Positions 1,450 to 62,800 of a DNA stretch of 64,000 nucleotides are shown one piece after another; position 1 is the stretch's first letter; each line of letters starts with the position of its first letter. Location of the stretch: NCBI RefSeq assembly GCF_963921235.1, contig NC_086097.1:172982001-173046000 (forward strand), in the 5' to 3' direction. This DNA comes from Mobula hypostoma (taxonomy: Eukaryota). The notes under the pieces were generated by a model, which did no database searches, was not told the origin of the DNA, and saw nothing but the letters and a program-made list of their open reading frames with translations. A program made the translations under genes and the position numbers.

Positions 1450-1642
1450 TTCTCTCCTATTAAATTCCTTCTTTTTCAGCCATATCACTTCCATCACCTC
1501 ATCTCACTTATTACCTGCTGGGTATACTCTTTCCCTTTGCCCCTCCACCTTCTTTTTCTGGCTTCTGACCCCTTCCTTTCCAGCCCTGATGATGTATCTT
1601 GGTCTGAAACATCAACTGTTTATACTCCTTCATAGATGTTGC
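1450..1642 (+). mobile_element. Older PLE terminal repeat with degenerate hammerhead, split by the younger PLE; resumes at ~3191-3270
   Basis: cagccCTGATGA...tctGAAAcatcaactg at 1581-1618; continues after the insert as gatgctgcctgacttgctca...cagcatctgc. Confidence 0.7.
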
Positions 1643-1696
1643 ACTCACAACACGCTGGAAGAACTCAGCAGGTCGGACAGCATCCGTGGAAACAAT

Positions 1697-1734
1697 CAGT
1701 CAATGTTTCGGGCCGGAACCCTTCGTCAGGACTG
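1697..1734 (-). ncRNA. Hammerhead ribozyme motif, inverted copy
   Basis: Reverse complement of the 3060-3097 motif. Confidence 0.78.
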
Positions 1735-1892
1735 TAGGGGGAAGGGGCAGAGGCCCTATAAAAAAGGTGGGGGGGGAGGGTGGGAAGGAGAAGGCTGGTA
1801 GGTGCCAGGTGAAAAACCAGTAAGGGGAAAGATAAAGGGGTGGGGGAGGGGAAGCAGGGAGGTGACAGGCAGGAAAGGAGAAGAAGGAATAG

Positions 1893-2796
1893 GGGAGACA
1901 GACTGTCCACTGACATCTTCTACAAGCCCACTGACTCTCATAACTACCTCGACTATACCTCTTCCCACACTGCCACATGCAAAAATGCCATTCCCTATTC
2001 CCAGTTCCTCTGTCTCTGCCGCACCTGCTCCCAGGATGAGGTTTTCCGTTCCAGGACATCTCAAGTGTCCTCTTTCTTTAAGGATCGTGGTTTCCCTTCT
2101 GCCATCATCAATGATGCCCTCACCCGCATCTCCTCCATTTCCCACACTTCGGCCCTCACCCCACCCTCTCGCCACCACAACAGGGACAGAGTTACCCTTG
2201 TCCTCACCTACCACCCCACCAGCCTCCGGATCCAGCACGTTATCCTCCGCAACTTCCGCCACCTTCAACAGGACCCCACCACTAAGCACATCTTTCCCTT
2301 TCCACCCCTCTCCACTTTCCGCAGGGATCGGTCCCTCCACGACTCCCTGATCCACACGTCCCTCCCCACGGATCTCCCACCTGGCACTTATCCCTGCAAG
2401 CATAAGTGCTACACCTGTCCCTACACCTCCTCTCTTGCCACCGTACAGGGCCCCAAACAGTCCTTCCAGGTGAGGCAACACTTCACTTGTGAGTCTGTTG
2501 GGGTCATCTATTGCATCCGGTGCTCCCGGTGCGGCCTCCTCTACATCGGTGAAACCCAACGCAGATTGGGGGACCACTTTGTCGAGCACCTCCGCTCCGT
2601 CCGCCACAACAGACAGGATCTCCCGGTTGCCACCCACTTCAACTCTGCTTCACATTTCCATTCGGATATGTCCATACACAGCCTCCTCTACTGCCATGAT
2701 GAGGCTAAACTCAGGTTGGAGGAGCGACAACTCATATACTGCTTAGGTAGTCTCCAGCCACTTGGTATGAACATAGAATTCTCCAACTTCCGGTAA
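1893..2796 (+). pseudogene. PLE ORF fragment: RT thumb plus GIY-YIG endonuclease (open frame, N-terminus missing)
   Basis: ORF 1840..2796 contains STDIFYKPTDSHNYLDY and YPCKHKCYTC, then VIYCIRCSRCGLLYIGET..RL..H (GIY-YIG motif with the PLE-type CxxC). Confidence 0.9.
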
Positions 2797-3059
2797 TTCT
2801 CTCCCCCTCACTTCCCCTATCCCTATGTCATTCTGTCCCTCCCCCAGCTGCCTATCACCTCCCTCATGGTTCCGCCTCCTTCTACTACCCATTGTGTTTT
2901 CCCCTATTCTTTCTTCACCTTTCCTGCCTGTCACCTCCCTGCCTCCCTTCCCTCACCCCTCTATCTTTCCCCTTACTGGTTTTTCACCTGGAACCTACCA
3001 GCCTTCTCCTTCCCACCCTCCCCCCACCTTCTTTATAGGGCCTCTGCCCCTTCCCTCTT

Positions 3060-3097
3060 CAGTCCTGACGAAGGGTTCCGGCCCGAAACATTGACTG
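3060..3097 (+). ncRNA. Minimal type I hammerhead ribozyme motif in PLE terminal repeat
   Basis: cagtc CTGACGA a gggttccggccc GAAAc att gactg. Stem I cagtc/gactg, stem II gggt/gccc, intact CUGANGA and GAAA boxes; stem III variant (ATT instead of GTC). Confidence 0.8.
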
Positions 3098-3447
3098 ATC
3101 GTTTCCACGGATGCTGCCCGACCTGCTGAGTTCCTCCAGCGTGTTCTGAGTGTTGCTTTGACCCCAGCAGCTGCAGAGTATTTTGTGTTTTACCTCCATA
3201 GATGCTGCCTGACTTGCTCAGTTTGTGTGTGTTGCTCAAGTTTTACAGCATCTGCGGAATCTCATGTCTACTAATTGTCTACTAATGATAGGAATTGTAA
3301 AACCATTATAGCTCTCTCCACCTAACTTCAATGTGGTAATTATCTTAACAAAAACTAACAAAACTTCTGAGGAATCCTGATTGAAATTATCATGACAAAA
3401 TCAGTTTAAACATGATATCTTGCACACCAGAGATAAATTTAGTTGGC

Positions 3448-6559: not shown

Positions 6560-6688
6560 ATAATCTGCAGATGCTGGAGATTCAAAGCAACACATACAAA
6601 ATGCCGGAGGAACTCAGCAGGCTATGCAGCATTTATGGAGAAAAGTTAAATACTCGACATTTTGGGCCAAGACCCTTCATCAGGACTC
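6560..6688 (-). mobile_element. Short PLE terminal-repeat insertion with degenerate hammerhead
   Basis: Minus strand reads gtcCTGATGAagggtcttggcccaaaatgtcga, followed by the shared gctgagttcctcc...cagcatctgcag tail. Confidence 0.75.
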
Positions 6689-7837: not shown

Positions 7838-8047
7838 CTGCTGGGGGAACTCAACAGATTGAGCAGTATCTGTAAGAGGAAAGGAACTGTCCATATTTCA
7901 GGTCAAAATCCTGCATCAGGACTCAGTGCAGGTCAAACTGAAACATTGACATTTCCTCTCCTCCCACAACATGCTGCTCAACACGTTGAGTTCCAAAAGC
8001 AGATTGTTTGATGCCCTACATTCCAGCACCTCAGCCTCTTGTGTCTC
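7838..8047. mobile_element. Older palindromic PLE-derived mini-element
   Basis: Inverted arms (gaactcaacagattgagcagtatctgt / acaacatgctgctcaacacgttgagttc) around a degenerate hammerhead at ~7890-7950. Confidence 0.6.
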
Positions 8048-9253: not shown

Positions 9254-10382
9254 GTTATATAATGTATTGAATGGACCTCATATGACAAAGATGAACTCTT
9301 AATCACTCAATCTACCTTCTCATGGTTCTTGTACCCTATTTGGCTACCTGCACTGAACCTTCTCTACCAGTGTAACACTACGGTCTGCATTCCATTATTG
9401 TTTTCCTTTTGTACTACCTTAGCATACTTAGGTAGGGAACGATCTGTCTGGATGACACACAAACAGAACCTTTTTCATTTTATCTCAGTGCATGTGACAA
9501 TAATAAACCAGTTACCAATACTTTTTCATTCATGGCATATCCAGAAAGTCTCAAAATGATTTGAAAGTATAGAGTAGTGGTCGATTTATACAGTGAACTT
9601 CAGTAAAACGAAATGGACTTGGAGAGGAGGTGCTATCTGAGTGACATAAAAAATGAGTCATTATAAGGAAGATGAGTAAGTGGGAGAGAAGCTTTGAGAC
9701 TCCGTGGCAGGGAGAAGCTCTCGCACTTGATCTGAATTCAATCATCTGTTTTTCCAGTTCCTTTCAGAAACTTACGTTGAGAACTAAAGTCAGAAAATCT
9801 TCACAGTTACGCTGTCGGGTTCAAGCAGGACTGGTACATATGAACATACTCCCCATAAATGCAATTGTCACAGATAGATTGCTTAAAAATGAAACGAATT
9901 ACAAATACTTTTGTGAAACGTACAATATGTCACTGCCTCATGCTTGATAACACTTCTTAAAAACTTTACATAACTAAGTTTGATAAATACGTTTCCTTTC
10001 ACAATCTCCTTTTAACAACGATGACAGGTTTTCCAGGGAGAGAGAAGGCAAGAACACTCATTACTGTTATACAGCAGTCAGGAGGAAAATGACAATCTTA
10101 CATCTTAAGGGCAGAATAAAGAAAAGTTACTTATGGCCCTTAAAGCTGGTTCCTTAGCTTAACTTGTTAGGAGCATTAGGGATAAGCACCTCTTTGTTTT
10201 TAGCAGTCTTTAACTGAATTGTAACAGAGGCAGCTGGTGTATCAGCAACACTCTACAAATAAAAAGCTTGCTTTAAACTTACAACTGTAATTAATAGTTC
10301 AAGGCACCTGCTGTTACTATTACTGTTTATTTCTGAGAGAGAGATGCCAAACAATAATTCAGAAATTGTCATTTTGTAATAC

Positions 10383-10544
10383 CTGCGGGGACTTGTGGGA
10401 ACGCCAACTGTACTGATGGCTATGCTGGCTAGACAATAGAACATTTTCATCAGTATCCACCTGGCCAAACCGCAATGTCTCCTGGGTGTCGTTACATATC
10501 ACGAAGTGGCTGAAGACCAATTCCTCTGCCTCTGGATGTTGGTT
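10383..10544 (-). CDS. VPS13B: VPS13B internal coding exon (162 nt, phase 0 to 0)
   Basis: Hand translation: NQHPEAEELVFSHFVICNDTQETLRFGQVDTDENVLLSSQHSHQYSWRSHKSPQ. Acceptor ctctgttccag, donor CAG|gtatta. Confidence 0.94.
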
Positions 10545-12443
10545 CTGGAACAGAGAACATCAGCACACATTAGATCAGCCCCAAGGATGATTAGCAGTCA
10601 TGTACCTAAGTGGTAAATGCTGCAGCTTTTGAAAGCCAAAGGATATGAATACTCTGATTAATATTTCACGACTGACAAAAGCTGTTTACTGTCAACACCA
10701 GCACTTCAAATTCTCTATGGTGCTTAAAAAAACAGTTGTTTTAAAAAAAATAAAGGAGCCTTCTGGAGATTGTGAGTCTAATATATAAACTGATTTAGAA
10801 CTTGCAGTTGGCAATGTCTTCAAAGCTTAACTTTAGATGACTCCAAACATAATCAGATCATAGCTCAGCATTCCAAAAGCACCAGAACTAAGATGTTCAA
10901 GCCTGAACAGAGCATTCAGTTTGACCAAAGTAATCAGTAAAGTGAACCAAACATTATTTTTGAATAGAGACAAGCACAAAGCATTAAAAACATAAGGTAC
11001 AGTGTGATGCAAGAAAAGTAACTTAGCAGAAAAAATAGGGGAAGATAATTAAAAAAGTAATATCAAACATCCTTATTATATGTTCATGTGAGATAAGCAG
11101 AAAAGAACCACAGAACTGCAAATGAGGATTAAAGAAAGCTTTTGTGTTCCAGGACATGGTTCTGCAATTCAGTTCCTGGCTGCCGACTATTCAACTCTGC
11201 CTACCACACTTGGGAAAACTCTTGTAACCCAGCCTACAAGGATAACTTGATCCAGTGATCTATACTCACAGGAGCATGGCCTTGTGCTTTTGCAGGCCAA
11301 GCTTGGCCAGCTGCTCCCCATCCTCAAGAGAGAAAAATAGTAGATTTTAAAAACAAAGGGAAGAAACTCAACAAAAGAATCTAAGATACAGCTGCCATGA
11401 GAGGCCCTCAGCTACCCCATTACAGGTATATAAGAGCTGCCCAATACCAAATATACATCAATCTGTGAGCAGTGTCAGAGTGATTTTTGGGATCTAATCC
11501 AAAGTAATATGATTATAAACCTTCAGTGCTTGAGTAGCTGTTAACCAATATGGACATTATATTTTTCCACTGACATCAGTTCTCATTACCGAAAGAGAAG
11601 GACATTTCTGTAATATGCCAGAACTGCAAAAGAAATCTGGTCATTGCACACAAATTAGAGAGAAGCAATCACATGCAAGCACAACTTTAATTCTCAAGAC
11701 TCGATCCTAACTTTACTGCACGCGATACCTAGGCTGTCTTTATGACCAGATGCAAATAGGATAAATATAGGGGCTGTGTTCTTTATTATATGGAGATGTG
11801 ATAGAACAATTTTCAGTTTTAAAAGGAATGACTAAGGTATGCATGTAAATATTTTAATTACAGGCACCAAAATACTAAACTTTCCGAGATAAATATTGCA
11901 GAACAAAAGGGTAATGAGGAACTGGAATGAGCTGCCAGAGAAATGGTTCATGGAGAAGGGCTTGCAGGATTATAGGCTGATCCCAGGCAGCTGTTACTAG
12001 CAGGAAGGATGCTGGGGTCTGGATGAATTAGTTGGTCCAAGAAGAAAAAAAATGTTTCATACAAAACACAGAGGTTTGACACCTTCATTGGGTGATGACC
12101 TATGGAAATGAAATTCATTGCTGGCACAGAATATAATTTTACGATTCCATTTGCTGGGATTCCTCTGATTTTTTAAAAATTGAAATAATGGTGCCTGTTA
12201 TTTAAGAAGCTACCTCTATTAAATTTATGCCCTGTGGATTGATAACAACTAGGTCAAACCAGTGCTGCTCTCATTATAATGCTGTAAATGAAGTTTATGC
12301 TTGGTACATTAATATTGAAAGATATCATCTGTAGTAAAAAAATTAGAATACAGTTCTGTCAACAATTTAAGGATCTCTGCTCCAATGACCTCAGAAGTCA
12401 ATAATAGAAATGAGTTGTCATGGTTACCCTTGTGCTAACATAC

Positions 12444-12793
12444 CTGCTTCCAAGCACGGATTGCTGTGTCCAATGAATGGATTGCATGCTGCCCCACATT
12501 GATAAACACAGGATCAATAAACACGTTTCCATCCAATAGTTGCTCCACAGAGCTGTTGCTGATGGCCACTTGTCCATGAAGAATGAAGGGTTTTATAATG
12601 TTGAGCATGGTGAGGTTGCGGTATTCCAGCAAGTTACATTTGACAGTGGTGGAGAACTGGAATTCCTGGCAGACTGGTCCGTCAGACCACTGACGCAAGT
12701 AGACATTTGGATTTTTCAGAGAAATCACCATGTATTCTTGCTCAGAAGGCAACTTTCTATCAGGCATGAATGTCTGGAGGCAGCTGGGTTGAG
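12444..12793 (-). CDS. VPS13B: VPS13B internal coding exon (350 nt, phase 1 to 0)
   Basis: Lies within ORF 12435..12830: QPSCLQTFMPDRK...VYLRQWSDGPVCQE...VFINVGQHAIHSLDTAIRAWKQ. Acceptor ttataccacag, donor CAG|gtatgt. Confidence 0.93.
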
Positions 12794-12896
12794 CTGTGGT
12801 ATAAAATAAATATTTCAAGTAATCATGCAAGAAGGGAGAGCCATAATCTTACTCAGTGTGACTAAAGCTTCACAACAAAGTGTTTGACTTAAACAC

Positions 12897-13565
12897 TTGA
12901 GCAGTTTCAAGTTCTTGAGTATCAACATCTCTGAAGATCTAACCTGGGCCCAACATATTGATGCAATTACAAAGAAGGCACAACAGTGGCTACATTTTTT
13001 AAGGAGTTTGAGGAGACTTGGTATGTCACCAAAGACTCTGGGAAATCTCTACAGATGTGCAGCGGAGAGCATTCTAACTGTTTGCGTCACTATCTGGTAT
13101 AGAGGGGCCACTGCACAGGATCAGAAAACGCTGCAAAAAGTTGTAAACTCAGCCAGCTCCATCACAGATACTAGCCCCCATGCCCCCGCCCCCAGCATTG
13201 AGGATACCTTCAAGAGGTGGCATACATCATCAAGGACTCCCCCCCCCCCCACCCCCACCATCACCCTGGACATGCCCTCTTTTCATTGCTACCATCAAGG
13301 AGGTACAAGAGTCCGAAGACAATGTTTCACTCAATGTTTTAGCAACAGCTTCTACCCTCTCCACCATCAGATTTCTGAATGGACAATGAACCCATGTACA
13401 GTACACAACTTCCCTATTTTTTCTCTCCTTTTGCACTACTTATTTAATTCAATTTTTATTTATATTTCTTATTGTAACTTATAGTATTTTATTACTATCA
13501 TGTACTGCTGCTACAAAACAAATTTTATGATATATGCCAATAATGTGAAACCTGATTCTGATTCT
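12897..13565 (+). mobile_element. Rex1/Babar LINE 3' fragment
   Basis: ORF SSFKFLSINISEDLTWAQHIDAITKKAQQWLHFLRSLRR...ESILT; CTGATT tail. Confidence 0.85.
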
Positions 13566-14432: not shown

Positions 14433-14614
14433 CTGTACCTAGCTGATCCAAATGATGGCAAAGGTGAAATTCAATTTGAGCAAGCCGTAATGAGATACCA
14501 AGAGAAGAAACAAACCATGGGGCAAAACAAGAATCAACCCTGGTGCAGGCTGCCAAGGCCATTGGAGACACAAGCTGATCACAGATACTCTGAGAGCCGG
14601 ACTCTCCATCACTG
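14433..14614 (-). CDS. VPS13B: VPS13B internal coding exon (182 nt, phase 2 to 1)
   Basis: Not in the ORF track; translated by hand as SDGESGSQSICDQLVSPMALAACTRVDSCFAPWFVSSLGISLRLAQIEFHLCHHLDQLGT. Acceptor ttctcatcag, donor CAG|gtatgt; phases match both neighbouring exons. Confidence 0.92.
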
Positions 14615-15774
14615 CTGATGAGAATGCAATAAAAATAATCTGATCAGTATCACATTTCTGCTGAAAGAAACCTGAAATTTAATTTTAAAAAGATCTTGTT
14701 TTATTAAAGATATTAAGACAACCAAAGACACATAATTTTCATTGTGTCATGGTAGTATTAACTATTTCTTAACCAAAATTATAGGGCTGCAAAGACTTGA
14801 CAAAATATTCCACAAAAATATTCAAACAAGCAACATGAATAAATTGTAAAAGGAGAGAAACAAAAGGCTATACAAGGTATAAGAGGAATGCTGCACTGTC
14901 AGAAATGGGCTATCACTTTCAGATGGGACTTCGAACAAGACCCCATCTGCTCTGCAGTTTCCCCCCGGATGTAACAGGGTTCTGTTCTTGAGCACTCTTC
15001 CAGAGTTGGACCTGTTTGGGTAATGAAATGAATGTATTTAAATGAAAACAAGGCCCAACTAAAAACAACACCCGGTTAAACCAGAATATTTAATTGAAAC
15101 ATTGAAATACTATCATAAACTGAGTTTTTACACAGCAGAAGATACCTGCAGCCCAGAAAATTCATCCCTCCAGTCATTCAAGCACTCATTTATATGAATG
15201 GACAGTGCATAAATTAAGCATTCCTAACTTGGAAGGAACTGCATTTCCTTATAACACACAAGGAGGCAATTTCATGCTTAAGTTTCTCATTCTTCTAGTT
15301 CTACTCAAAAGGTTGCTACTTTGATAAGTTAATTCTTTCCCATTGATGTTGGTTTTTCTGCTGGGTGCCTTTAACATTTTTCTTCTTTTATTCCAAAGGT
15401 ATAATGTGCTGTCAGATGGTAGTCTAACAACACAGTATTTTTTTCACTACAATACAGAAGTAAAGCACTGAAAATGTTGGAAATCAAAATAAAAATAGGA
15501 AGTTTTTATTTAAAGCAAATATTGCACCACTATCTCTGCACTTTCCTCTTGTTTTGCACGTATTATTGTGTTTATTGTTGTATTTATTATTGCCATATAT
15601 AGTGTTTCATGCAAGCAAGGAATTTCTTTGTTACCTGGTGTATATGTTAATAAACTAACCTGATCAGACTTATTAGAAATACTTAATTGGTCAAGCAGCA
15701 TTAGCAGAGTGAGATATTGAGTTTACCAATGTTTCTGATGAATGGTAGATTTATGGATTTATTCCTGGAGTCAT

Positions 15775-16440: not shown

Positions 16441-16454
16441 AGACCCTATCATTC

Positions 16455-17612: not shown

Positions 17613-19262
17613 AGGACAGCTTTATAGAATGGGCATCGGAGGAGCAGGCAACGGAGTAGCAGGAGTCAGAGTAGGAGGGCTTTGGCTCAACGGGGCTTTG
17701 GTGATAACTAGTCAAGGCCAGGTAAGTTACTTGTGAAGAATAGGAAGTATGTCTGTGAGGCCGGTGTTCAGTACTGGGTGTCAGAAGTGGGATGTCCAGG
17801 AGACTCCCAGTCTCCCAGACGGCCATATCTGCGTCAGATGCATCGAGCTGCAGCTCCTTAGGGACCGGGTTAGGGAACTGGAGATGCAGCTCGATGACTT
17901 TCATCTGGTCAGGGAAAGTGAAGAGATGATAGGAGCTATAGGTAAGTAGTCACAACGGGGCCTAGGGAGACAGAGAAGTGGGTAACAGTCAGAAGAGGGA
18001 AGGGTAAGAGTTAGATACAGTACCCCTGTGGCTGTCCACCTTAACAATAAGTACTCTTTTTTGAGTACTGTTGGGAGGGATGACCTACCTGGGGGAAGCA
18101 ACAGTAGCCATGCCTCTGGCACAGAGCCTGGCACTGTGGCTCAGAAGGGTAGGGAAAGGAAGAGGATGGCATCAGTGATAGGGGACTCTATAGTTAGGGG
18201 GGTCAGACAGGTGTTTCTGTGGATGCAGGAAAGAAACATGGAAGGTAGTTTGCAGCCCAGGTGCCAGGGTCCGGAATGTTTCTGATTGCATCCACGATAT
18301 CCTAAAGTGGAAAGGTGACCAGCCAGAGGTCGTGGTACATATTGGCACCAACGATATAGGTAGGAAAAGGGAGGAGATCCTGAAAATAGACTACAGAGAG
18401 TTAGGAAGGAAGTTGAGAAGCAGGATATCAAAGGTAGTATCTCGGGATTACTGCCTGTGCCACGCGACAGTGAGGATAGGAATAGAGTGAGGTGGAGGGT
18501 AAATGCATGGCTGAGGGATTGGAGCAGGGGGCAGAGATTCAGATTTCTGGATCACTGGGAGCTCTTTTGAGGCAAGAGTGATCTGTAAAAGAAAAGGACA
18601 AGTTGCACTTGAATCCGAGGGGGATCAATATGCTGGCAGGGAGGTTTGCTAAGGCTATTGGGGAGAGTTTAAGCCAGAATTGCTGGGGGTTGGGAACCAA
18701 ACTGAAGAGATGGAGGAAATTTGTAGACAGTGTGAGAGGGAGGATAGACAGGTGATACAGAAGGGATATGCTCAGAATGGTGGTTTGAGATATGTCTATT
18801 TTAATGCAAGGAGTATCATGAACAAAGCAAATGAGCTTAGAATGTGAATCAGCACTTGGAGCTATGATGTTGTGGCCATTACAGAGACTTGGATGGTTCA
18901 GGGGCAGGAATGGCTACTTAGAGTGCCAGGCTTGAGATTTTTCAGAAGGGCAGGGAGGGAGTCAAAAGAGGTGGGGGTGTGGCACTGCTGATCAGAGATA
19001 GTGTCATGGCTGCAGAAAAGGAGGAAGTCATGAAGGGATTGTCCACTGAGTATCTGTGAATGGAAGTTAGAAACAGGAAGGGGTCAGTAACTCTAATGGG
19101 TGTTTTTTTATAGACCACCCAATAGTAACAGGACCATCGAGGAACAGATAGGGAGACAGATTCTGGAAAGATGCAATAATAACAGGGTTGTCGTAGTGGG
19201 AGGTTTTAATTTTCCCAATATTGATCGCATCTCCCTAGAGCAAGGAGTTTAGATGGAGTGGA

Positions 19263-19466
19263 CACAAAATAATCTGCAGATGCTGGGGTCAAAGCAACAC
19301 TCACAACACGTTGGAGGAACTCAGTAGGTCGGGCAGCATCCATGGAAAAGATCGGTTGACGTTTCAGGCCGGTCCTGACGAAGGGTTCCGGCCCAAAACG
19401 TCGACCGAAGTTTTCCACGGATGCTGCCCGACCTGCTGAGTTCCTCCAGCGTGTTGTGAGTGTTGC
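19263..19466. mobile_element. Palindromic hammerhead-bearing PLE mini-element with 14-bp TSD
   Basis: TSD ttagatggagtgga at 19249-19262 and 19467-19480. Inverted arms of ~85 nt; core cggtcCTGACGAagggttccggcccaaaacGTCgaccg at 19370-19407. Confidence 0.9.
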
Positions 19467-21219
19467 TTAGATGGAGTGGAGTTTGTTAGGTATGTTTAGG
19501 AAGGTTTCCTGACACAATATGTAGATAAGCCTACAAGAGGAAGTCATCCTCCACCATCAGATTTCTCAATGGACAATGAAACCTTGTACACTACCTCACT
19601 ATTTTTTTGCACTACTTAATTAATTTAATCTTTATATTTATATTTCTTATTGTAATTTATAATTTCTAAAATTATGTATTACACAGTACCACTGCCAGAA
19701 AACAACAAATTTCATGACACATGCCAGTGATATTAAACCTGATTCTGATTTTACACTGTGGGATATTGTGATCTTGTAACAATGTGTGCTATAATCACTG
19801 AATTGTTGTGTTCAGTTCTGGTCACCTCATTATAGGAAGGATGTGGAAGCTTTAGAGAGGGTGCAGAGGTGATTCACCAGGATACTGCCTGGATTAGAGA
19901 AGATGCCTTATGAGGAGAGGTGGAGTTAAGTATAGCTTTTTTCGTTGTAGTGAAGGAGGATGAAAGGCAATTTAAAAGAGGTGTATAACATGACAGCCGG
20001 CATAGATTGAGAGCCAGTGCCTGTTTTCCCTCATGGTGGAAGTAGTTAAATTAAGAAGGCACATTTTTAAGGTGACTGGAGGAAAATATAGGGAGGATGT
20101 CAGAGATAGGCCTTTTAGACAGAGAGTGGTAAAAGAATGGAATGCACTGCCAGGACTGGTGGTAGAGGCAGATACATCAGGGACATTCAAGAGCCTCTTA
20201 GATCGGCACACGGATAAAAGAAAAATGCAGGTCTATGTGAGAGGGACAGGCAAGGTTGATCTTGGAGTAGGCAGAGCTTCATGAACTAAACTCTTCTATG
20301 TTCTAAGCCCCTTTAGAGAAGGAAAAATAAAGGTACAGTTTGTCACCAACTCAAGGGCATTTTAGAGATGAGATATAAATGTTGACCTTACAGTGACACC
20401 TATAACCTAAAGATGAACTGTAAAATGTTAAGTATTTGTTGGATTCTACTATAGAGGAAGTTAGTGGTTTGTTCCAAGTAGCATTAAAATTTTTATCCAA
20501 AATGATCACCATGACAAGTGGGACTGTGGCTATTCACATGAAAATATTTTCATTTCTAAGTACTGAATGTTAGATATCAAAAACATGCACTTGTGGATTA
20601 CATAATATGTTTCTGCTCATTCTTTAGAGTTTAGTAAAATAGTAGCTGGCCACATATTTTAGTTAGCATTCAGAAGAATAGATCTACTGAAAAAAGCTAT
20701 TTATATTACTTGAGAAAAATGTAAATGAATAACACTTCTGTCAGGAATGGCTGCTCAAGGACATTCTGTTAAGTCTTGTGTTTCAGACAAGGGCCAGAGA
20801 GCAGCACTCTTGGCCTCTAAGCCAGAAGGTTGCAGTCTTGAAGTCTGATATTAGTATGAAAAAAAGCAGGCAAACATTTCAATGCAATGCTGAAAGTGAT
20901 TTGCATTGCTTGAGTTACCAGTTTGTCTTTTCAGTGGACATAAAATATTCCATGGCACAATTTCAAAGAACAACTCTGGAGCTCTGTCCACTATCCAAGT
21001 CAATGGGCCCAATTATGGCTCACGCATGGATAGTCACACTGTATTAGGAAGCTTATTGCCAGCCTTGGTCCCTGCACACTACTCTGTGTCTGAGTTCACT
21101 CCCAAGTCCAAGTGCATTCTGTAACATACTGGGATCAGACAATATGTGTTACTAGTCTCACAGCTTTACACCTGCCACAGGTGGTATATCCCACAGCAAC
21201 ATTAAAAACATTAGCATCA

Positions 21220-32658: not shown

Positions 32659-32855
32659 CTCTGCTCTTCAGCAATTTCTTGATTGTTATTAAGAACTATC
32701 CTCCACAGGTCAGAAGCTACCAGCTCCTTCTGATCACTAGCCAATGTGACGTTAGGCAGCTGTAGCTCACACGCTTTGCTTTCTGACAAGCTAAATTCAC
32801 GATAATCCACAAATATTTGTTGAAGTTCATCCCAGTACTCTAGGCTGCATGGTAC
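32659..32855 (-). CDS. VPS13B: VPS13B internal coding exon (197 nt, phase 0 to 2)
   Basis: Acceptor tttgaaacag, donor AG|gtaaga. Encodes VPCSLEYWDELQQIFVDYREFSLSESKACELQLPNVTLASDQKELVASDLWRIVLNNNQEIAEEQ, in frame with the preceding exon. Confidence 0.93.
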
Positions 32856-33344
32856 CTGTTTCAAATAAATAACAAGAAAGAAATTATCACTGCCAAGTAA
32901 ACCACTCAGGTATTGCACCATAATGTATTTGAAAGGGTAGAATGGACTCTTGGGTATACTTGTGGACTCAAATCATATAGAACAATATAAGTCAAATATT
33001 TGAAGAAAGTACCGTGTATAGTCCAGGAGGAGAGACCATACATACTCTCTGTGCTCACTGGGTAAAAGGTGAACTGACTTGACGCAAATTCTCACATATA
33101 TTAACACATTTTCCAAAGTAATTGAGTCCGGTGCTTCATAAATCTACTTTACACCCTCACCAGTGCTATCACATCCATCCTATACAGTGCCATCCTGAAC
33201 GAGAATCATAGAATTGTTGCAATAGCCCATTGAGTCCATGCCAATACAAAACATTTTAAATATAGCCTCACTAGGGTCTTATATAGTTCAAATATGATCA
33301 ACTGAAGGCAATTATCCTGTATGCCTTCATAGTATTTAATATTT

Positions 33345-41466: not shown

Positions 41467-43577
41467 TATATGAAAGCCACTCTCAAAGATATTGTGCAAA
41501 ATTACGCTGCACAAGCAAAATACATTTAGAGAACAAGTGAAATACTGCACCAACACCATACAGATTTGATGGAACATGTTACTCAGTGCTAAGTGCTCCC
41601 AAGAAATGTTTCCCAATGTGAGCTTTTGACCATATATCTCTCTCCAGAGACTCCCTAACTTTGTAACATGTTCCAGTCTGACAAAACCACTGCACACTTC
41701 CAACTCTAACTTTGTAATCAGTCCCAATTTTAATTACTCCTCCAGAGGCAGCACGCATTCAGCTGCTGCTCTTGCCCTATGTCCTAGAGTTCTCTCTGTG
41801 GCGCTCCTGGCCATTTTTTCTTAAGATTTTTGTTAAAAAATCTCTCCCTGACCATGTTTCTACACATCTGTCCTGATATCTCATGTGGTGCAATGCTCCA
41901 TAATGTTTGACAATGATCATTTTGATCATTTAACTGCACAGGAGCAGCTATATTTTGCAAAATTTTGTTGATATTTTAACCAATGCAAGAGAATAATCCA
42001 TATAATGTGCCAATCCATTTTCTCCTCCATTTTCTCTCTCCTAAAGTTGTTAAAATTTAAAGTTTGTCCTAAATGAGATGCATTTCTCCCTGGCATTCAT
42101 TCTCCATTTTAACAGCATGTTATTGCTTGCAATACCCTTATTTCATGGCTGCAACATCCCTTCTACTGATGGATCTAATATTAGGCACTACCTTAGAATT
42201 CTTTAGCATTCGGTTCAGCATGGTTTCAAATATCTTCTCATATTATTCTTACAAAGAGGATAGAAAGCATGAAAATAGGAGCAGTATAGTCCACCTGGTC
42301 CCCACGTCTGTCATTCACCATGATTATGGAGGACCCTAACTCTTCCACTGTATCAGTTCCCCATTGCCTGCAATTCCTTGATCTCTCAAAAACATCTACC
42401 TCCATCCATCTCTAATGAGCCAGCCAGCAAACTATGTCACTACTGCTAGAAACAAGTTCAAACAAATCTATAAGTCACTATGTGCCACATAAGTCAGAAG
42501 CAAAGTACATAACTTTGTAAAATAAAAAGAAGAATGAGAGGAAGCTCCAACAGGATCACTATCGTGCATGACAGTCACTTGTTCCATCCTGCCTCAGCCA
42601 ATTCTTTGAGAGATCCATCCAAATAGGTCCATTTCCCCACATCAGCTCTGCTAATATTCCTGTTTCCTTTTAACTCTCATGCCACAATGTCATGCAAAGT
42701 TCAAATTTGGACACAAAAATTACTAAATTGATAAGAAGAATTTACCAAGGTTTTTAAAGTGTGTTTCAAAGACCCTGCACTATCACCATACAAAATCCTG
42801 ACAATGAATTATTCCACTAGATGTGAATACCATTTCATTTCCTCCAAAAATTGTTCAGTCTGGATAAGAAACCACATGGCCAAGGTGCAGGAATGGATTT
42901 CAAAAATATAAATGCAATCCACTCTTGGGAAACAAATAAGTAGTGCTCACAGGAAAAAAAAATGCCCAAAGTTGCAGCATTGACTTTTGTAAAGAAGACA
43001 CAGCTGCGGCTTTTTCACCTGTGTTGCCCCACAAGTATTGTGGAATACTGCACTGCATCAAAATTGTCTTCCTGTCCGGAAAGCCAGGCATGTATAAACA
43101 CTACAGTGAACTTAACATTTATTTTCTCTTTCGTATTGGGAATTGGTAATTTTAGAGCCCTGGGAAATTTGCACTAAATTTCTAAGGAAATGTGAAAAAA
43201 ATATAGTATTTGGTTTTACAGCAGCCCTATGCCAGATATTTTTCCATTGGTCCCATTACAAGTGAAAGCAATGCTCTCCATGGGTCTGGTTAGAACAAAT
43301 TCTAAACTAAATTTAAGTAATCCCTTATTTTTATTTTTTTTAACCCGCAGGAAAATATGAAATACATTAAATGATATATAGATACTTAAAGTGCAAACAT
43401 CACAGAAGCTGGTGGACTCCAAACAAAATTGTGCCTTAGAGTTCTGCAGCACCACTTGCGATATTGGACATTTTAAAATTTGGATTGACCATATTGTGAA
43501 GTCTCTATGCAGAAGTCTGCAGAAGAAACCTGTTTGTCCATGAAAAGCAGAACTAAATTAAAATATGTCCAACAGAC

Positions 43578-43762
43578 CTGAAGGACATCCCCAAGATCTG
43601 CTGTGCTGATGTCCGGGTCTTCTGTAGTGTTGAAAGGCACTGGATTAATTCGAACAAGAGTCAGGGCTCGGGGTTCTGGATATCTCCACATCATCATCGC
43701 TGGATGCTCATCAGTCTCATTGTAAAACACAACTTCAAAAATATTTGGCAACTTTTGTGCAT
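43578..43762 (-). CDS. VPS13B: VPS13B internal coding exon (185 nt, phase 1 to 0)
   Basis: Acceptor ctcatttatag, donor CAG|gtctgt. Encodes AQKLPNIFEVVFYNETDEHPAMMMWRYPEPRALTLVRINPVPFNTTEDPDISTADLGDVLQ, recognised from memory of vertebrate VPS13B. Confidence 0.93.
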
Positions 43763-44034
43763 CTATAAATGAGAAATATAATTTAGATTACTTAAAAGTT
43801 CTAAAGATTCATATTCAAGCCCGATATAGTAAATACATAAACAATTTCTATTTGAGTATCCCTTTCGTTTGATATCTATAATTCCTTTCAATTTTACCTG
43901 TTCATCCCTTTCTTTCCACATAACCATTCATTCATACACGTGCATTCACTGAACCAGATTCCTGCCATTCAGGAATATTCTGCAGGTACTGCAATGCTCT
44001 CACAGCTCTAGAGCCCCAGATTCAACCTCAATCT

Positions 44035-47670: not shown

Positions 47671-50600
47671 CTTCAACTTATAATACTATGACTTTAAGAC
47701 CTTGATCTTCTTTGGGGCCAGCAAAGATCTACAAAGTGGTGAATTGGAAGGATCAAGGTAATATCCACATCTCAAGATCTGCTATGGGAGTGGCAAATGA
47801 AATGCAACATTTGCAGCAACAAGCAATCTGTTCGAGCAACTCAGCAGGTTGAGCAACATCTGTGGGAGAAATTGTTGATGCTTCAGGTCAAAATCCTGCA
47901 TTCAGGATTGATACCAGATTTTACTCTGTGACTGAAAACTTCTGAAGTGGCCTGGTGTAGCAACTGATTAACATCAATGAGAATTTTGAAAGGGATAGGT
48001 AAGATAGTGGCAGGAAAGTTGTTTCCACTGGTAGATGAGACTAGAACTCAGGGACACACCCTCAAGATTCGGGGGAGTAGAGTTAGGACAGAAATGAGGA
48101 GGAACCACTTTTCCCAAAGACAGGTGAGTCCATGGTCAGATCAGCCATGATCTTATTGAATGGCGGAGCAGGCTCAACAGGCCAGATGGCCTACTCCTGC
48201 TCCTATTTCTTATGTTCTTATTTTCTAATCTGTGTCTCTGCATTAACCACCCCAGAGAGCTGAAGCCAGATATGTTCAAACAACTGCATGCTAAAGAGGG
48301 CTATTATGAAGGTTTGCCATGCTGCCCCTCAAGATGTCTGATGCTGTCATAGACACTGAGAACAAGCAAACTTCTAAACTCTCTTCACATCACAGCAATG
48401 GGATTCTTGCTCCAAAACTGTTATGGTACATTGGCACAAAGTGGATAGTTGACTTCAATTTGCTTATAAATAATTAGGCAGATAATAGTTCATTCTGCAG
48501 CCAAGGGAATCAATGGATTTGCCACCCCTATCACAAATAACTGTCTGTTTACTTTCAGATTGATTTTAAGCAGTCCTCTTTATCTTTATTCTTTGCCAAG
48601 TTCACTGTTTTAAATCATGCATGATGTATGCTTTTTCAAGATCTTTTGGTCAGGAATTTTGAGACTGCGCCATATAAATCACTCTGTGGTATCAAGGTTT
48701 AAAGATATAAGAAATGTACGGAAAATGGTTAAAGTGAACAGTGGAAACAGCTTTTGGAGGAAAACACTTTGAAAAGCTTATGCATTAAAATGTACAACAT
48801 TTTAATTATTGCCTTTGGACTAACACTAAAAGTTTCATTTATTGAGCATCCAAGCAGGATATCTGAAAGATACCTAGACAAACTTAATTTCATCCTTTCA
48901 CTCAATCCTCCCCACCTGTCTGCAACTTGAAACACACTCATTTTCTCACTTTTCCTGTTCTGAAGAAGGGTAGTTGATTTTTATTTCTCTCTGCACAACT
49001 AATGCCTCACCTGCTGGATATGCAGTACATTTTCTGCTTTTATTGAAGCAAAATGTCCATCTTAACAAATCACCTTAACTATTCAAACAGGTTTACGAGC
49101 TCAATAGAGAAACCAGCAACTATGACTCTCCCGCTGATCAGCATATTTATGACATTAGTGAACCAGTGTCCAGAGACATGGAAAAATGTTCCATTGACTT
49201 GGCCTCACATTCATGGATTTAAGTTTTGTTAAGGAAAAGGTGGTACAGTAATGGTGAGCATAAAATATCAACCTGCTGTTAAAGATAAACATCTGGTTCA
49301 CTTATCCTTGGGAGTGCTCCTTCCAGTGGGGGATGATCAAGTTTCTGCCCTTGAACAGTCCTGTTCTCGGCCTTCAGCTGGGTGGGTCCTTCATTGCCTG
49401 GGCCTCGACAGTGCATAAGAATTCATGGACATCATGATTGCTGTCTGGCTGCTGGATCTCCTACACTTTTTCCAGCCACCATATGGACTACAGGTCACAG
49501 ATTTTGTTGGACTTTTGCCTTCAGAATCCTGGAGTTCTGTTTTTAATCCCAAAAGACATGTCAGTCCTAGTCATCCTTGGAATGGAAAAGGCTATGATTA
49601 ATTTGATCCTTGATCTTTGGTTGTTCTCATAACACCATTTACTTATCTTTTTCTGGCAGAGAAGCCAACAATCTTTTATTATGCTGAACACAGTTGACCT
49701 AGCACTCTGGACAATCTGTGGTTCTTATGCGTGATCTCAATCACCCCTTTTCATAGAACGGTACTGCACAGGAACAGACCCCTCGGCCCTCAGCTCCACA
49801 GATACTACAAGATTTGTTGAGTTCCTATGGCAGTTTGCTATTTGCTCCAGGTTCCAGCATCTGCAGTCACTTGTTTTCAATTTGTGCTTCTTGTTGATGG
49901 GAAGTCATATAGTTGTCAAGGAGGGTCTGCTTCAGTGAATTTTTCTTTACGGCTCTTTGAGTCCTTCAATGTGGGCGATAAAAGCATTTCTGTTGCCATG
50001 AGACATTTGATGACTGTGCTTGCCACAACTATCAAGATGTGCACGATATGGACACCTCTTCTGAATCTTTGAGGGCAACAATATAATCTGGCAAAGGCTA
50101 GTGTTTAGATCGAGGGTACGGTCTTGAGGCCATGTACTAGTTTAACTGATAAAACAGCCTATGGGTTATGTCAAAAACATTTTCCGAACATTTTGGCACA
50201 TCTTCCTCATCAGTTGATTATTGACCATCACACATTTCAAGTCAAGTTTATTGCCATACTCACAAATAGGGTGAAGTACAGTTCAATGAAAAGCTTGTTT
50301 GCAGTGTCATAATAGGCATGTAGATACAGACAACATACAGAATATAAATCAGAGTGGAATAAAAAACTGTACAAAATACAAGAACCTAGTGAAAAAAAAA
50401 CATAAGGACACAAGTCAGTTTCAGAGAATAGAGTCCATTCTTGCCCAAAATCAAAATGAGTGAATTCTCTGTTGGACATGAGAATTCACTCATTTTGATT
50501 TTGGGCCAGGAACTGGTCAAAGTTGGGAGTAGAACTTCTGTTTGCACCTATCCATTAGTTCCAGAGTTGGGGCATATGTACGGATGGCTACAGTTTGCTG

Positions 50601-54249: not shown

Positions 54250-54760
54250 ACACACAAAATGCTGGGGCAGCTCTGCAGGTCAGGCAGTATCTATGGAATG
54301 GAATAAACAGTCAACATTTCGGGCTGAAACCCTTCATCAGGTCTGGAAGGAAGGGGAGAGAAGCCAGATTAAAAAGGTAGGGGGTGGATTCTGTCAGAGT
54401 ACCACCCAACCTTACTTAAATCTGGATAGCCTCCAACCTGACGACATGAACATCGATTTCTCTAACTTCTGGCAATTTCTCCCCCTCCCACGTATCTCTT
54501 TTTGCATTCACCATTCTGGCTCTCCTCTTACCTCTTCTCTTCTCCTCATCTGCCCAGCAGCTCCCTCTAGCTTCCTTCCTCCTCCTCTTTCTCCTGTGAT
54601 CCACTTTCCTCTCCTATCAGGTTCCTTCTTCTTCAGCCCTTTGCCTTTTCCACCTATCACCTTCTAGCTTCCCACTTCATTTCCCTTCCCCACCTTCTTC
54701 CTCATCTGGTTTCACCTATCGCCCACCAGCTTGTGCTTCTTCCCTTCCCCCACCTTCTTA
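54250..54760. mobile_element. PLE fragment with 5' inverted terminal repeat containing a hammerhead motif (54308-54345, minus strand)
   Basis: Minus strand cagacCTGATGAagggtttcagcccGAAAtgttgactg; forward part encodes LDSLQPDDMNIDFSNF, the PLE ORF C-terminus. Confidence 0.8.
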
Positions 54761-58138: not shown

Positions 58139-58139
58139 T

Positions 58140-58290
58140 TATTCTGGCTTCTTCCTCTTTCCAGTCATGCTGTAGAGTTTCGGCCCAAAACTTCAACTGT
58201 TTATTTCCCTCCATAGATGCTGCCTGACCTGCTGAATTCCTCCAGCATTTTGTGTCTGTTGCTCCAGGTTCCATCATCTGTAGGAGCTCC
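58140..58290 (+). mobile_element. PLE terminal-repeat fragment with degenerate hammerhead
   Basis: tttcggcccaaaacttcaactg...gatgctgcctgacctgctgaattcctccagc. Confidence 0.7.
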
Positions 58291-58883
58291 TTTGTTTATG
58301 GATCGGAATAGTGAAGCTTGCAGGTGAAAAGGAATGGTTGAGAATTTCAGCAACAAATAAAATAACCTAATGTAGGAGTGGAGTTTGACAACATTATGGC
58401 AATTACAGGCTCCTTGATGCAGTACTCAGTCAAATGCTGTCTTGATGTCATTACACATCTGGAATTCATCCTTTGATCCAGGTTTGAGTTATGGTTGAGC
58501 AAGTGTCACTTGATAGCACTAGTGATGACAGCTTCCATCATTTTGCAGATGATTGAGAGTAAAGCTGATTGGGTTGTATTAAGTATATTGGCTGATTTGC
58601 TCTTTGTGAGCAGGATATACCCGGGCAAGATTCCACAACTGAAAAGTCATCAATCTGAAATATTAACTCTTGTTTCTTCTCTACCAGTGCTCCCTAGCTC
58701 GCTCAGTATTTCTGTGCTTACTAGTTGAATTTCAGATTTCCAGCCCTTATAGTATCTTCTGACATACAAAAAAAGGGATGACACCAGAAGAACTCACAAG
58801 CTATATTGGCAGCCTATTTGGGAAGGAGTACTGTTTTAATATCAGGATTTAGGTTGGCAAGAAGTTAGATTATGACCAATATA

Positions 58884-59205
58884 AAGCAACACACACAAAA
58901 TGCTAGGGGAACTCAGCATGTCAGGCAGCATCCATGGAAATGAACAAACGGTCAACATTTTGGGCCAAGACCCTCCTTCAGGACAGGAAATGAAGGGGGA
59001 AGACACCAGAATAAAATGGTGGTGTGGGGGAAGGGAATGGAAAGAGCATTGCTGCAATTTGTTGGGTGGGAAAGGTAAAGGGCTGGAGAAGAAGGTATCC
59101 GACAGGACAAGAGAATGGATGACAGGAGAAAGGGAAGGAGGAGGGGCACCAGGGGGAGGTAATAGGCAGGTGAGGGAAGCAAGAAGGCAGAATGGAAAAG
59201 AGAAG
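58884..59205 (-). mobile_element. PLE terminal-repeat fragment
   Basis: Similar to 1643-1896; degenerate hammerhead at ~58948-58985. Confidence 0.75.
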
Positions 59206-61324
59206 AAAAGTTGCTTTGGATTAGTAGCATCTGCAGAATTACTTGTGCTATCAACAACATAAAATGATCTCCATGACAACCAATTAAATTTCTGACAAGT
59301 AACTACATTGGCTAACAAATGAAGGAAACATCAGCATCCAAGTTGCCTAGCAGCTGACAAAAGTGCCCGACAGCATTATGTGATGCATCCACACAGTCTG
59401 AAAGATCACTTATAAGGGACTACGCATCATTACAAATAATGAAAGAAATTTTCTGAGAAGTTACATGTTTATGAATATTTTGTTAAGGGGTATCAATATA
59501 CGGTACAAGAATCCTAAAAGAACTTGCTGTTTTTATGGCTTTTCATTAGCACCTTCAAATTATGGAATGATGACATTAATTACTGGTCAATTGGAAATTC
59601 CATATCAGCCTTAGATTCAGCTTTTCAATGTATTATGATCCAATATGTGATCATATTACTACCACACACTAAAGTTGTCTTTGATGTGGCAGCATAGAGT
59701 GACATTCAATATTATGTGTTAATCACACAACACTCTCAAATGGTTTTATAACAGAGGTTACCTGTACAATTAAGATCTTACTCTGACTGAAACAAAGGTA
59801 CATAAACATTTCTGCACCAACCAAACAGTTCAAAACTTGCACTCACTCATCATAAACACCATACAATGGGAAGAAAGGAAATCTGGAGTAAGTAGAAAGG
59901 AACTAAGCTTGTAATTTTACCAACTATGACTTCTGTTCACATCAGTGTTTTTTTCAACACTGTGTATTAAAATTATTTGTTGGATATCACTCCCAATACA
60001 TAGATCCTTTGATTTAAGAAAGTAGGCATTCTAATCTTGTTTTTTTTTTCAAAATTCTGTTCACAAGCCACTTAGTCCATCCTATCCTCTGGCAACTACA
60101 TGAAACTGAATCATCCGAGGTCATACACAAGTTTGAGTTTTGGACCTCACTCTATGGCATCATCAAGACCGCTTTAATATCATCCAGCTGAGCCTCAGAT
60201 TATCTGTTGCTAAATCTTTCATTTGTGTCTTCATTATGTATTGAACTGACTAATCCAAAGTTCTCCAGCCCAGTCTTCGTTCCCTCTTTGGGATCATCAG
60301 AAGTGAACAAAGCAGGAGTAGTCAATTTCCCCCTTCCCGCCTCACTCCTCAGTATCTAGTAACAATATCATAAGGTCACATAGCACTGAAACAGGCCTGT
60401 TGGCCCACCAGATTCATGCTGACCACCAATTATCCTTCCACTAATCCCATTTACATGGTCCATTACCTTCTACAAATACCCACATCCATAACTTGGTCCC
60501 TCAACCAATGTTGGTAAAGCAGATGAGTTGGTCATTATTCCTTTGCTCTTCACGTGAACTTGACAGATAAAAATAATCTAAGTACCTCTCACCCCGTGTC
60601 TATTGAACTACACTGGATCCTGGTTAAGCAATAAACAATGCTTTAATTTTAAAATCTTTACCCTTAACTTCAAATTCAAACACCACCCCCGCCATGGGTC
60701 TTTTCTCTCCGTAACCACCTCTGTAAACTCCTTCAATTCCACAACCCTCTGAAATATAATAATTCTGCTTCACTCTGTCCTCTTAAATATCCATTTAATC
60801 CTGCTTAATGCCTGAGTCTATAGCTGCCAAAGCCCTTAACTCTAATATTTCCCCCAAATGCTCCCCTCCTCTCTTACTTCTTTAAATACAATCTGTAAAA
60901 CCTACTTTTCTGACCAAGTTTTTGTTCTTCTACACCAATATCTTTTTATGTGGAACGGATCAGATTTTTTGTTAACAGTTCTTTGAATGAAGCACACTAA
61001 GTGGTTTTGCTACATTAAAGGTGCAATTTAAATGGAATTTGTCACAGTTGTTATTGAGTATTAGATGTGGTCTCATAATGAGGCAAAATAAATCTGACGC
61101 GTCACACTATTCATACACCAATACCTATGTTGGCTGGATTGTAAGTGCAAGATCAAATGAATAAAAGGACATCTACTGACAAACTGAAATTTAATGGAGA
61201 TTGTTGCTGAAAAAATGGGATTCATGTTGGTACACTTAAAAATGCTGGGGGATTTCAGCAGGTCACACAGCATCTATGGAGGGAAGTAAACGGTCATCAT
61301 TCTGGGCTGAAACCTTTCACCAGC

Positions 61325-62800
61325 CCTATATACATTCACCCTATCTATACTGTTCATAACTTAGTATACCATTATAAAATCTCCCCTCATTCACCCTTGC
61401 TCCAGGGCATAAAATCCTAATGTAGTCAACCTTTCCTTGTAACTTAGATCCTCAAGTGTAAATCTTCTCTGCACTCTTTCAAACTTAGAGACATCTTTCC
61501 TAGAAGTAGATGACCAGAACTGCATACAAAACTCCAAATTTGATATCATCAACGTCTCATACAACTTCAACATAAGTCCCAACACCAGTATGCCATGCCC
61601 TGATTTATGGAGATTAATGTGCTCATAGCTCTCTTTATATTCCCATCTACCTGTGACAATACTATATTCCAAGGCACCGGTCGTGCATGCAGCCTGGTAC
61701 AGCCGTTCCGATCTATTCTTACTTTCTTCTTCTTACTTTTCAATTTACGTTATTTTTTGTATTTTTTTTCTCATGGTAACACGTCGAAGCTGCACCCTCT
61801 CTAACATGCTGGTAGAGAGAGTTTTATTTGGGTTTTCTTTAGCGCTGGAAATGGTTACATCCCGCCACGCAGGACAGAAGCAAGGTCGCATTGTGTATTT
61901 TACGGACCAGCAAAGACCAGCCGGTTTAGCGAACAGAGCGGTGGACACCCCTGCTGAAATCCGGAGGAAAACACACAGAGGGGGATCACAAAGCCGAGGA
62001 AAGAGGACCGGGTTGAGACAACAGAGACTTTTGGAGAAGAGGAGTTTGGTGGGTAATACCGTTCTGACTGACTGGAAGTGCACTGAGAGCGGTAAGCGTA
62101 AAGGAGTTCGGTGCTTACTGTTCTGGCTAACAATGGATGGTGCAATCCGGGGTATAATACGATCGAGGAACGTGTTTGCAGACTGGATATTGAACTTTTT
62201 ACTGTTGGACTTCGGCCACATTCCACCGTGATACAACACTTGGCGGCACGGGAGGTCGTTCCTGCCTGTGGCCATCGAATGTGCAGCTCCTCCTGTGGAG
62301 GGTCACACACCCTGAGCCAATAGACTGGTCCTGGACTTATTTTCCATCTGGCATAGTTTGCATTTTAGTGTTTGATTGTTGGGGTTTTTTGTATTGCTAT
62401 ATTTACGCTCTATTCTTGGTTGGTGCGGCTGTAACAAAACCAAATTTCCCCGGGATTAATAAAGTATATCTATCTATCTATCTATCTATCTATTTATCTA
62501 CACCTCAGTTCCCTACCATTCACTGTGTAAGTCGAAACTTGGTTTGTCCTTTCAAAGTGCACCACTAGTCACAGGCCTCCAGTCAGACAAACATCTATGT
62601 ATTACCACTCTTTGGGTTCGCTCACTAAGCCAGTGTTGAATCCAACTGACTGCTTCATCCTGAATGCCAAGCAAATTAACCTTCTGGACCAGACTCCCAT
62701 GTCGAACTTTGTCAAAAGCCTCGCTAAAGTTCATGTAAACAATGTCTACCACCACTACCATCAACTTCATCAACTGTCTTCCCTTCATGCACTCCGGTAG
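61325..62800 (-). mobile_element. Decayed CR1 RT fragment interrupted at ~61670-62500
   Basis: MNFSEAFDKVRH...WIQHWLSERTQRVV and LEFCMQFWS..ERVQRRFT. Confidence 0.8.
61670..62500 (+). mobile_element. Young CpG-rich non-autonomous element, probably an internally deleted Rex1 derivative, with (TATC)n tail
   Basis: Retains many CpGs; Arg-rich N-terminal-like remnant; Rex1 C-terminal-like aggtcgttcctgcctgtggccatc; ends ccaaatttccccgggattaataaagta(tatc)n. Confidence 0.6.

Follow-up and report, generated by a model that had tools for sequence, protein, structure and literature searches.

What kind of element scatters a small ribozyme-like motif through the introns of a vertebrate gene, and what does the motif do for that element? 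The question is raised by a 64,000-nucleotide stretch of the Mobula hypostoma genome (NC_086097.1, positions 172,982,001 to 173,046,000; here called the window), which lies in the VPS13B gene and for which an original prediction had listed 13 hammerhead-like copies. In our analysis, the motif is probably a minimal type I hammerhead that belongs to the terminal repeat of a Penelope-like element (PLE) abundant in the genome. By prediction, cutting would require a dimer or help from the element protein, and the intronic copies would be decayed, 5′-truncated insertions, likely copied from RNA joined at the cut site. What is new is that, in one set of young copies (family A), the ends of insertions are concentrated in the motif and absent from its predicted cut site, such that the motif likely stalls the copying enzyme.

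Every one of the 13 listed copies is present: when the window was scanned ungapped with two real copies as seeds and a threshold of at least 24/39 matches, exactly these were returned, compared with 0.2 per window (maximum of 1) in 30 shuffled windows. The listed minus-strand coordinates needed adjusting, as they are the low ends of the copies, and the copy placed near 7890 lies at 7887-7924 on the minus strand. With a profile made from real copies, 22 fragments (22 of 26 rows) are found in the window at E ≤ 0.01. The surrounding 1.194 Mb contains 283, with none when the sequence is reversed, which is one per 4.2 kb (the earlier estimate was roughly one per 5 kb). From 5′ to 3′, the motif consists of a stem I strand (Y)AGUC, CUGANGA, one extra A, stem II (GGGU-loop-RCCY), GAAAC, GUC, and GACU(G); there is no loop III, and the palindromic 15.1-16.1 stretch is ACGU, permitting a dimer. 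The predicted anatomy, with a 4-5 bp stem I and a 4-bp stem II, is seen, and behind each of the 13 window copies is a conserved tail of 60-100 nt.

All core letters are intact in 5/13 window copies, each of which has lost either its stem III palindrome or one of its stem pairs, and none of the 13 passes a strict descriptor. The 1.194 Mb contains 56 core-complete copies, with CUGANGA and GAAA boxes and an NUH triplet (reversed control, 1), and 25 strict ones (control, 0). A 4-5 bp stem I, a G10.1-C11.1 pair closing stem II and one extra nucleotide behind position 9 are thus seen here; many young copies have G-U at 10.1-11.1. Genome-wide, one 31-nt core pattern has 11,707 exact matches (backwards control, 0); the claim that no copy is perfect thus stands for the window and falls for the genome. 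If the local density holds, extrapolation from the 283 fragments and 25 strict copies gives a genome total near 0.8 million for fragments and about 70,000 for descriptor-intact motifs. Comparison with Rfam, which had been suggested as a check, gave 13 matches in the window at E ≤ 5 with no hammerhead among them, likely because the Rfam hammerhead models expect a stem III.

The element itself is represented in the window by an insertion at 1642-3188, which sits within an older copy and is bordered by a 16-bp duplication (2 mismatches, by eye); between its coding part and the 3′ hammerhead lies a 3′ untranslated region. Its partial frame matches the GIY-YIG endonuclease (EN) family with an E-value of 0.0096, below the Pfam cut-off. 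Used as a protein query, this fragment drew 229,075 first-look candidates in the genome, of which 132 were scored. The frame of the element (locus L031) is a single reverse transcriptase (RT) frame with a C-terminal GIY-YIG domain and contains the motifs ADKG, YIDD, CKRKCYTC (a CX2CxxC linker) and YIGET; its Pfam RVT_1 and GIY-YIG matches are below the cut-offs, and the nearest named PLE proteins are those of rays and sharks, at 62-83%. A CX2-5CxxC zinc-finger-like linker between RT and EN is given in the available text of PMC8557442 as a Neptune feature common to Nematis. Judged by its sequence, the element is an endonuclease-bearing PLE (RT plus GIY-YIG), of Neptune type by its linker. Among 20 long-frame loci, one near-full-length unit (L043) extends to the 5′ repeat. 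Each of its direct repeats carries the motif, at a distance of 3,529 bp from the other, and the RT-EN frame that they enclose is broken. Pseudo-long terminal repeats (pLTRs) in direct or inverted orientation, 5′ truncation, an optional 30-40 bp tail and target duplication are all seen in element copies. The earlier identification of the motif as a PLE terminal-repeat hammerhead is borne out by the adjoining GIY-YIG frame, by L043 and by a match to the descriptor of PMC4209133. In another locus (L035:5820-6400), a tandem 30-nt expansion within the PLE frame leaves the frame open (repeated SRTITALI). Across subfamilies, the tail behind the motif (L043; L002, L018) matches the core in conservation and is predicted to form a long hairpin that spans both 3′ ends; the tail is likely a protein-binding or RT-start signal.

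To locate the ends of insertions, we number positions from C3, such that the cut site is at +28 and the hammerhead occupies -8..+27 (36 nt). Young family-A copies were chosen by tail alone (156 copies, 58 from the unselected 1.194 Mb and 98 from loci with an exact tail match). The 5′ ends of 58 of these (37%) fall at -8..+27, while 46 copies extend beyond -300. This corresponds to a hazard of 0.0120 per nt inside the motif versus 0.0020 at -41..-300, a sixfold difference, with 9.5 ends expected where 58 are observed. The peak is present in both subsamples (27/58 in the unselected 1.194 Mb, 31/98 in the picked loci). No 5′ end is found at the cut site (+28 ± 1) in the 156 copies, nor at +26..+35, and among 91 copies picked from the 5′ side by their untranslated region (UTR), none ends at the cut site, with 86 reaching +77 or beyond. 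Two classes of 3′ end are seen, one at about +95 from C3 in 86 copies and the other at about +131 in 69 copies. Among copies ending at most 80 nt upstream, the median 5′ end is -3 for both the short-tail (46 copies) and long-tail (41 copies) classes (p = 0.82), although their lengths are 99 versus 135 nt. Because the 5′ end is the same for both tail classes, the stop tracks the motif rather than the copied length.

Many of the motif-ended copies (40/58 are called inverted) are joined at the motif to an inverted second arm. In a recurrent form of this joint (39727-39735 in the window; L105, L146, L149, L226), the stem I CAG of one arm overlaps the core CTG of the other. Under a stricter inversion call, which over-calls long copies and of which only the non-inverted class is used, 11/42 non-inverted copies end in the motif, compared with 3.6 expected (p = 0.0014). 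Target duplications of at least 11 nt flank 13/49 non-inverted copies, and 11 of these are among the 25 copies that end at -23..+25, compared with 0.14 in a shuffled pairing.

Two changes of the core letters are inherited, and the subfamilies that carry them have amplified widely. A6C is seen in 17/179 copies and A9C in 20/192, compared with 0-6 occurrences of C at eight other A columns, and each change goes with a tail of its own (p = 4e-11 and 2e-15, respectively). The A6C core marks a subfamily (L224-L246) whose UTR and tail are distinct, and is also present in five family-A copies among 25 loci; A6C copies extend into PLE coding sequence. In the genome, 4,719 matches lack A6, the first 100 of which have 68 C, 20 G and 12 T by hand count, and a tighter A6C pattern has 2,333 matches. 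The old A9C subfamily (7887-7924 and 47819-47907 in the window; L099, L102-L130) has the core CUGAUG-C-A-G, its own tail and UTR, and a 3-bp stem I, with 173 genome matches to a CpG-tolerant pattern of its older form. Here, the spare nucleotide may instead be shifted 5′ of A9, which could keep activity. A 2017 study of PLE hammerhead variants by Lunse et al. reportedly may describe such core variants. These subfamilies also qualify the suggestion that most differences between copies are CpG decay: CpG columns are indeed eroded, their commonest letter being kept in 54-69% of copies from the 1.194 Mb versus 86-98% in non-CpG core columns, whereas the two inherited A-to-C changes are of another kind. 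A proposed check for covariation came back empty, as no covariation in the stems rises above shuffles among 28 aligned copies of the genome, which is as expected for close subfamilies. As 23 of the 28 rows were chosen by patterns fixing stem II, their 99% stem II pairing is no test.

A mechanism that would connect these observations begins with RT starting at either of two internal tail sites, on RNA joined at the cut site. RT would run into the hammerhead, with the monomer folded as a 38-nt rod, and stall. Self-complementary pieces (CAG/CUG, GUCGAC and stem II) could then join two cDNAs, or one folded-back cDNA, giving rise to 200-nt tail-out palindromes such as those at 19262-19471 and 39633-39860. 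In the latter, the two hammerhead copies overlap at CAG/CTG, and the insertion has a 15-bp target duplication (by eye). The intact monomer is predicted to form such a rod, with GAYG paired with CGUC, at -12.9 kcal/mol. Cutting would likely be dimer- or protein-dependent, and because subfamilies with altered core letters multiplied, it is likely auxiliary for insertion. A bolder version, which we offer tentatively and regard as possible though somewhat unlikely, is that the hammerhead of this lineage is mainly a fold and not a knife: it would halt RT and supply the joints for the 200-nt palindromes, by which the motif would have reached hundreds of thousands of copies, and the A6C and A9C lineages would have spread without needing to cut. 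If this were true, the genome would be a ready record of PLE RT starts and stops in vivo and of the core changes that transposition tolerates.

Several results weigh against a reading in which cutting is auxiliary and the motif stops RT. The predicted fold of the monomer is unexceptional compared with shuffles (z of -1.3 and -1.8) and weak as DNA (-4.2 and -2.4 kcal/mol). The double-hammerhead dimer has a fold of -16.7 kcal/mol versus a cofold minimum of -34.1 kcal/mol; its geometry is writable and is not the predicted minimum, such that the cofold prediction gives no thermodynamic support for the dimer. Counts of 35-mers in the genome are 57,236 for the tail, 52,288 just upstream and 30,543 about 85 nt further up, a raw drop of only 9% across the hammerhead, with the tail and upstream patterns catching partly different subfamilies. 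Roughly corrected for exact matching (rates of 26/58 and 16/27 in the 1.194 Mb), survival across the motif is about 0.7, which is below the baseline of 0.87 and a weaker effect than the 0.45-0.53 of the sample. In other subfamilies, 22/53 copies appear to end in the motif, a confounded count in that several of these ends are UTR divergence and many loci were motif-picked. Finally, the core is kept in distant PLE relatives, an argument that catalysis counts at some stage of the cycle. The identification of the motif is itself qualified by another of the suggested checks, the constancy of the core relative to its flanks: copies within the genome vary less in the core than in the spacer behind it, while the adjoining tail block is about as constant as the core, such that the comparison is not decisive here. 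The distant relatives examined are five metagenome-contig loci with 28-35% protein identity, two of them without a 3′ flank; in 3/3 with a 3′ flank, a hammerhead with the same core and different stems lies 66-220 nt after the stop.

Of the alternatives, the main rival takes cleavage to be obligatory: the hammerheads of the two pLTRs would excise a unit-length RNA, which would be closed into a circle by religation and copied in that form by RT, leaving no end at the cut site. Religated RNA would indeed give the same lack of ends, such that the 0/156 and 0/91 are predicted by circles as well, and the model, put forward in the available text of PMC4209133, agrees with the partial-tandem layout of L043 and with the core kept in the three distant relatives (28-31% protein identity) whose stems differ. 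We nevertheless consider it fairly improbable, as it leaves the clustering of 5′ ends at the motif unexplained and as the A6C and A9C subfamilies multiplied, with a natural A6C hammerhead described as cutting slowly, at <0.1 per min (in the available text of PMC3088659). For an anole element, moreover, insertion in vitro is normal in ribozyme mutants, and the site coincides with the end of no RNA-seq read (PMC11167929). A different objection concerns the pile-up of 5′ ends itself, which could arise after insertion, by deletion of long palindromes toward their centre, or from alignments that stop where subfamily UTRs diverge. The high share of inverted copies among those ending in the motif, the UTR confound that is real in other subfamilies and the small drop in raw k-mer counts all speak for such an artefact, yet the end position is independent of tail length, the peak is present in non-inverted copies, target duplications abut the short ends, and the junction flanks are inverted element or unrelated sequence and not UTR. 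We judge an artefact of this kind to be distinctly unlikely.

Two further explanations are very improbable. That the copies are non-LTR retrozymes, i.e. tandem non-coding units, has in its favor the type I hammerhead and the argument that retrozymes are derived from pLTRs (bioRxiv 10.64898/2026.07.22.740005, in its available text), whereas the long copies here continue into PLE UTR and frame. For the window, this reading is contradicted by the absence of motif-bearing tandem units, the motif being in none of 15 tandem-array rows. Nor is it at all probable that the copies are host-used intronic ribozymes regulating VPS13B pre-mRNA. VPS13B, the host gene, runs on the minus strand over about 1.08 Mb; the window contains five matches to its exons, and no motif copy overlaps them. 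The copies are intronic, as had been predicted, and 13 strict-descriptor copies are on the sense strand of the gene. However, there is no strand bias of motif copies in VPS13B (131 sense versus 122 antisense for all, 13 versus 12 for strict copies), and therefore the link to the gene is incidental. The strict sense copies lie at least 25 kb apart, save one pair at 3.2 kb, none is in the window, and the palindromic insertions are predicted to fold as long hairpins that would mask the motif. With no fully intact window copy and no strand bias, host use is unsupported, and the motif and its location in VPS13B introns are ordinary repeat debris. The reading that we prefer thus remains that of a PLE terminal-repeat hammerhead carried by truncated insertions, the window copies of which are collected with the other features in Table 1.

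Table 1. Motif copies, element parts and VPS13B exon matches in the window, with the hammerheads of distant PLE relatives
Feature	Position	Strand	Details
Old hammerhead copy	1581..1618	+	All core letters retained; stem II broken and G16.2 lost
Tail of copy 1581..1618	3190-3234		Continuation of tail split by the 1642-3188 insertion
5′-truncated Penelope-like insertion	1642..3188	+	Inverted 5′ arm 1642-1896 (minus), long tail
Hammerhead of inverted arm	1697..1734	-	Core kept; stem III palindrome lost (ACAU)
C-terminal PLE frame part	1900..2793	+	RT thumb, CX2CxxC linker, GIY-YIG endonuclease
Hammerhead of 3′ pLTR	3060..3097	+	266 nt past last sense codon; core kept, palindrome lost (ACAU)
Decayed copy	6651..6688	-	G12A
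Old-subfamily copy	7887..7924	-	C at expected A9; inverted partner 7938-8010
VPS13B exon match	10377..10547	-	
VPS13B exon match	12444..12794	-	Frame 74% identical to whale shark VPS13B-like
VPS13B exon match	14437..14619	-	
Tail-out palindromic insertion	19262..19471		Joined inside hammerhead; plus copy 19370-19407 (G12A); 14-bp target duplication (by eye)
Young-family copy	23831..23868	+	Cut off at hammerhead 5′ edge; core kept, stem I weakened
VPS13B exon match	32664..32858	-	
Tail-out palindromic insertion	39633..39860		Copies 39697-39734 (minus, G8A) and 39727-39764 (plus, G8A and A14U)
VPS13B exon match	43575..43778	-	
Second old A9C-subfamily copy	47819..47907	-	Absent from the earlier list of 13
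Motif copy	54308..54345	-	Core kept, one stem I mismatch, AUGU wobble palindrome
Decayed copy	58162..58199	+	
Decayed copy	58949..58986	-	A9G, G12A
Decayed copy	61291..61328	-	
Distant hammerhead	L323:2717-2754		Extra A in GAAA box
Distant hammerhead	L320:1588-1628		2-nt palindromic loop III
Distant hammerhead	L321:4106-4150		2-nt palindromic loop III

The window also contains repeats of other kinds. A near-complete CR1-type long interspersed nuclear element (LINE) at 28004-29869 and 30357-31728, both on the minus strand, includes RT (an RVT_1 match), an endonuclease and an esterase-like first frame, and further fragments are found at 24325-24833 and 37616-38817. The sequence at 12888-13568 (plus strand) and five similar copies are 3′ ends of another LINE family with CTGATT-repeat ends, in which a frame matches Pfam ALKBH8_N. 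Other features include a 91-bp tandem repeat without a hammerhead (17273-17614, 3.8 copies), a 740-bp low-complexity tract of purines only (51129-51871), and a long inverted repeat pair about 20 kb apart (26066-26825 with 46312-47605).

When compared to known systems, the motif is of a kind already known, because PMC4209133 gives the motif, the extra nucleotide, the palindrome, the place in both pLTRs and the scattering, and PMC11167929 and PMC3846280 add the RT starts and the palindromes. The available text of PMC4209133 (Cervera and De la Pena 2014) describes minimal hammerhead ribozymes (min-HHRs) of metazoan PLEs, among them fish Xena, Poseidon and Neptune, which cleave weakly as dimers. 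Common to these and the copies here are type I topology without a loop III, the palindromic 15.2-16.2 stretch, the extra nucleotide between 9 and 10.1, the G10.1-C11.1 pair, a place in both pLTRs, and an occurrence mostly as scattered single truncated copies, with opposite-strand pairs 100-700 bp apart. In scale, the exact cores of one pattern counted here compare with about 4,000 in coelacanth and about 9,000 in Xenopus tropicalis found by descriptor in that study. Its available text mentions a U3-A8 variant, without A6C or A9C subfamilies or a mapping of breakpoints, the supplementary alignments lying outside our comparison. In the literature covered, which did not extend to the supplements of the closest papers, we found no PLE hammerhead family of a ray or shark, no truncation peak at the motif and no A9C; the breakpoint peak and the variant subfamilies are accordingly what we did not find in the literature and regard as new points, while the motif and its arrangement have been known since 2014. 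With the Neptune clade, as described in the available texts of PMC8557442 (Craig et al. 2021) and PMC3846280, the element has in common the C-terminal GIY-YIG, the CX2-5CxxC linker, 5′ truncation, the inverted 5′ copy and the 30-40 bp tail. Target duplications are 8-10 bp in these texts versus 11-16 bp here. Inverted junctions with palindromes in rotifer PLEs were read as self-priming by Arkhipova et al. (2013; PMC3846280, available text), and in what is available of the two Neptune texts such junctions are not linked to the hammerhead. Retrozymes, which have a type I hammerhead related to those of pLTRs and were found in the one cartilaginous fish sampled (bioRxiv 10.64898/2026.07.22.740005, available text), are tandem units, unlike the copies here, which occur singly or as inverted pairs and extend into the coding sequence of the PLE.

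Another close known system is PAc, the Poseidon element of Anolis carolinensis (Frangieh et al. 2024, PMC11167929), whose ribozyme mutants still insert in vitro and whose cleavage needs protein. Like the element here by our reading, PAc has two internal RT starts, an optional tail (36 nt here) and a hammerhead upstream of both starts; its uncut RNA serves as template and both DNA strands are extended in vitro, to which we liken the element of this genome. PAc differs in belonging to the Poseidon clade, with a frame that begins inside the hammerhead, whereas the element here has the CX2CxxC linker and no start codon in the motif. The main text gives no map of 5′ truncation points, its Fig. S2 being outside our comparison. 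The role of the PLE hammerhead is stated to be unclear in the available text of PMC8557442, and the in vitro study finds it unnecessary for insertion (PMC11167929). The tens of thousands of young copies in this genome let the same question be asked in vivo, where natural core variants mark lineages that spread regardless.

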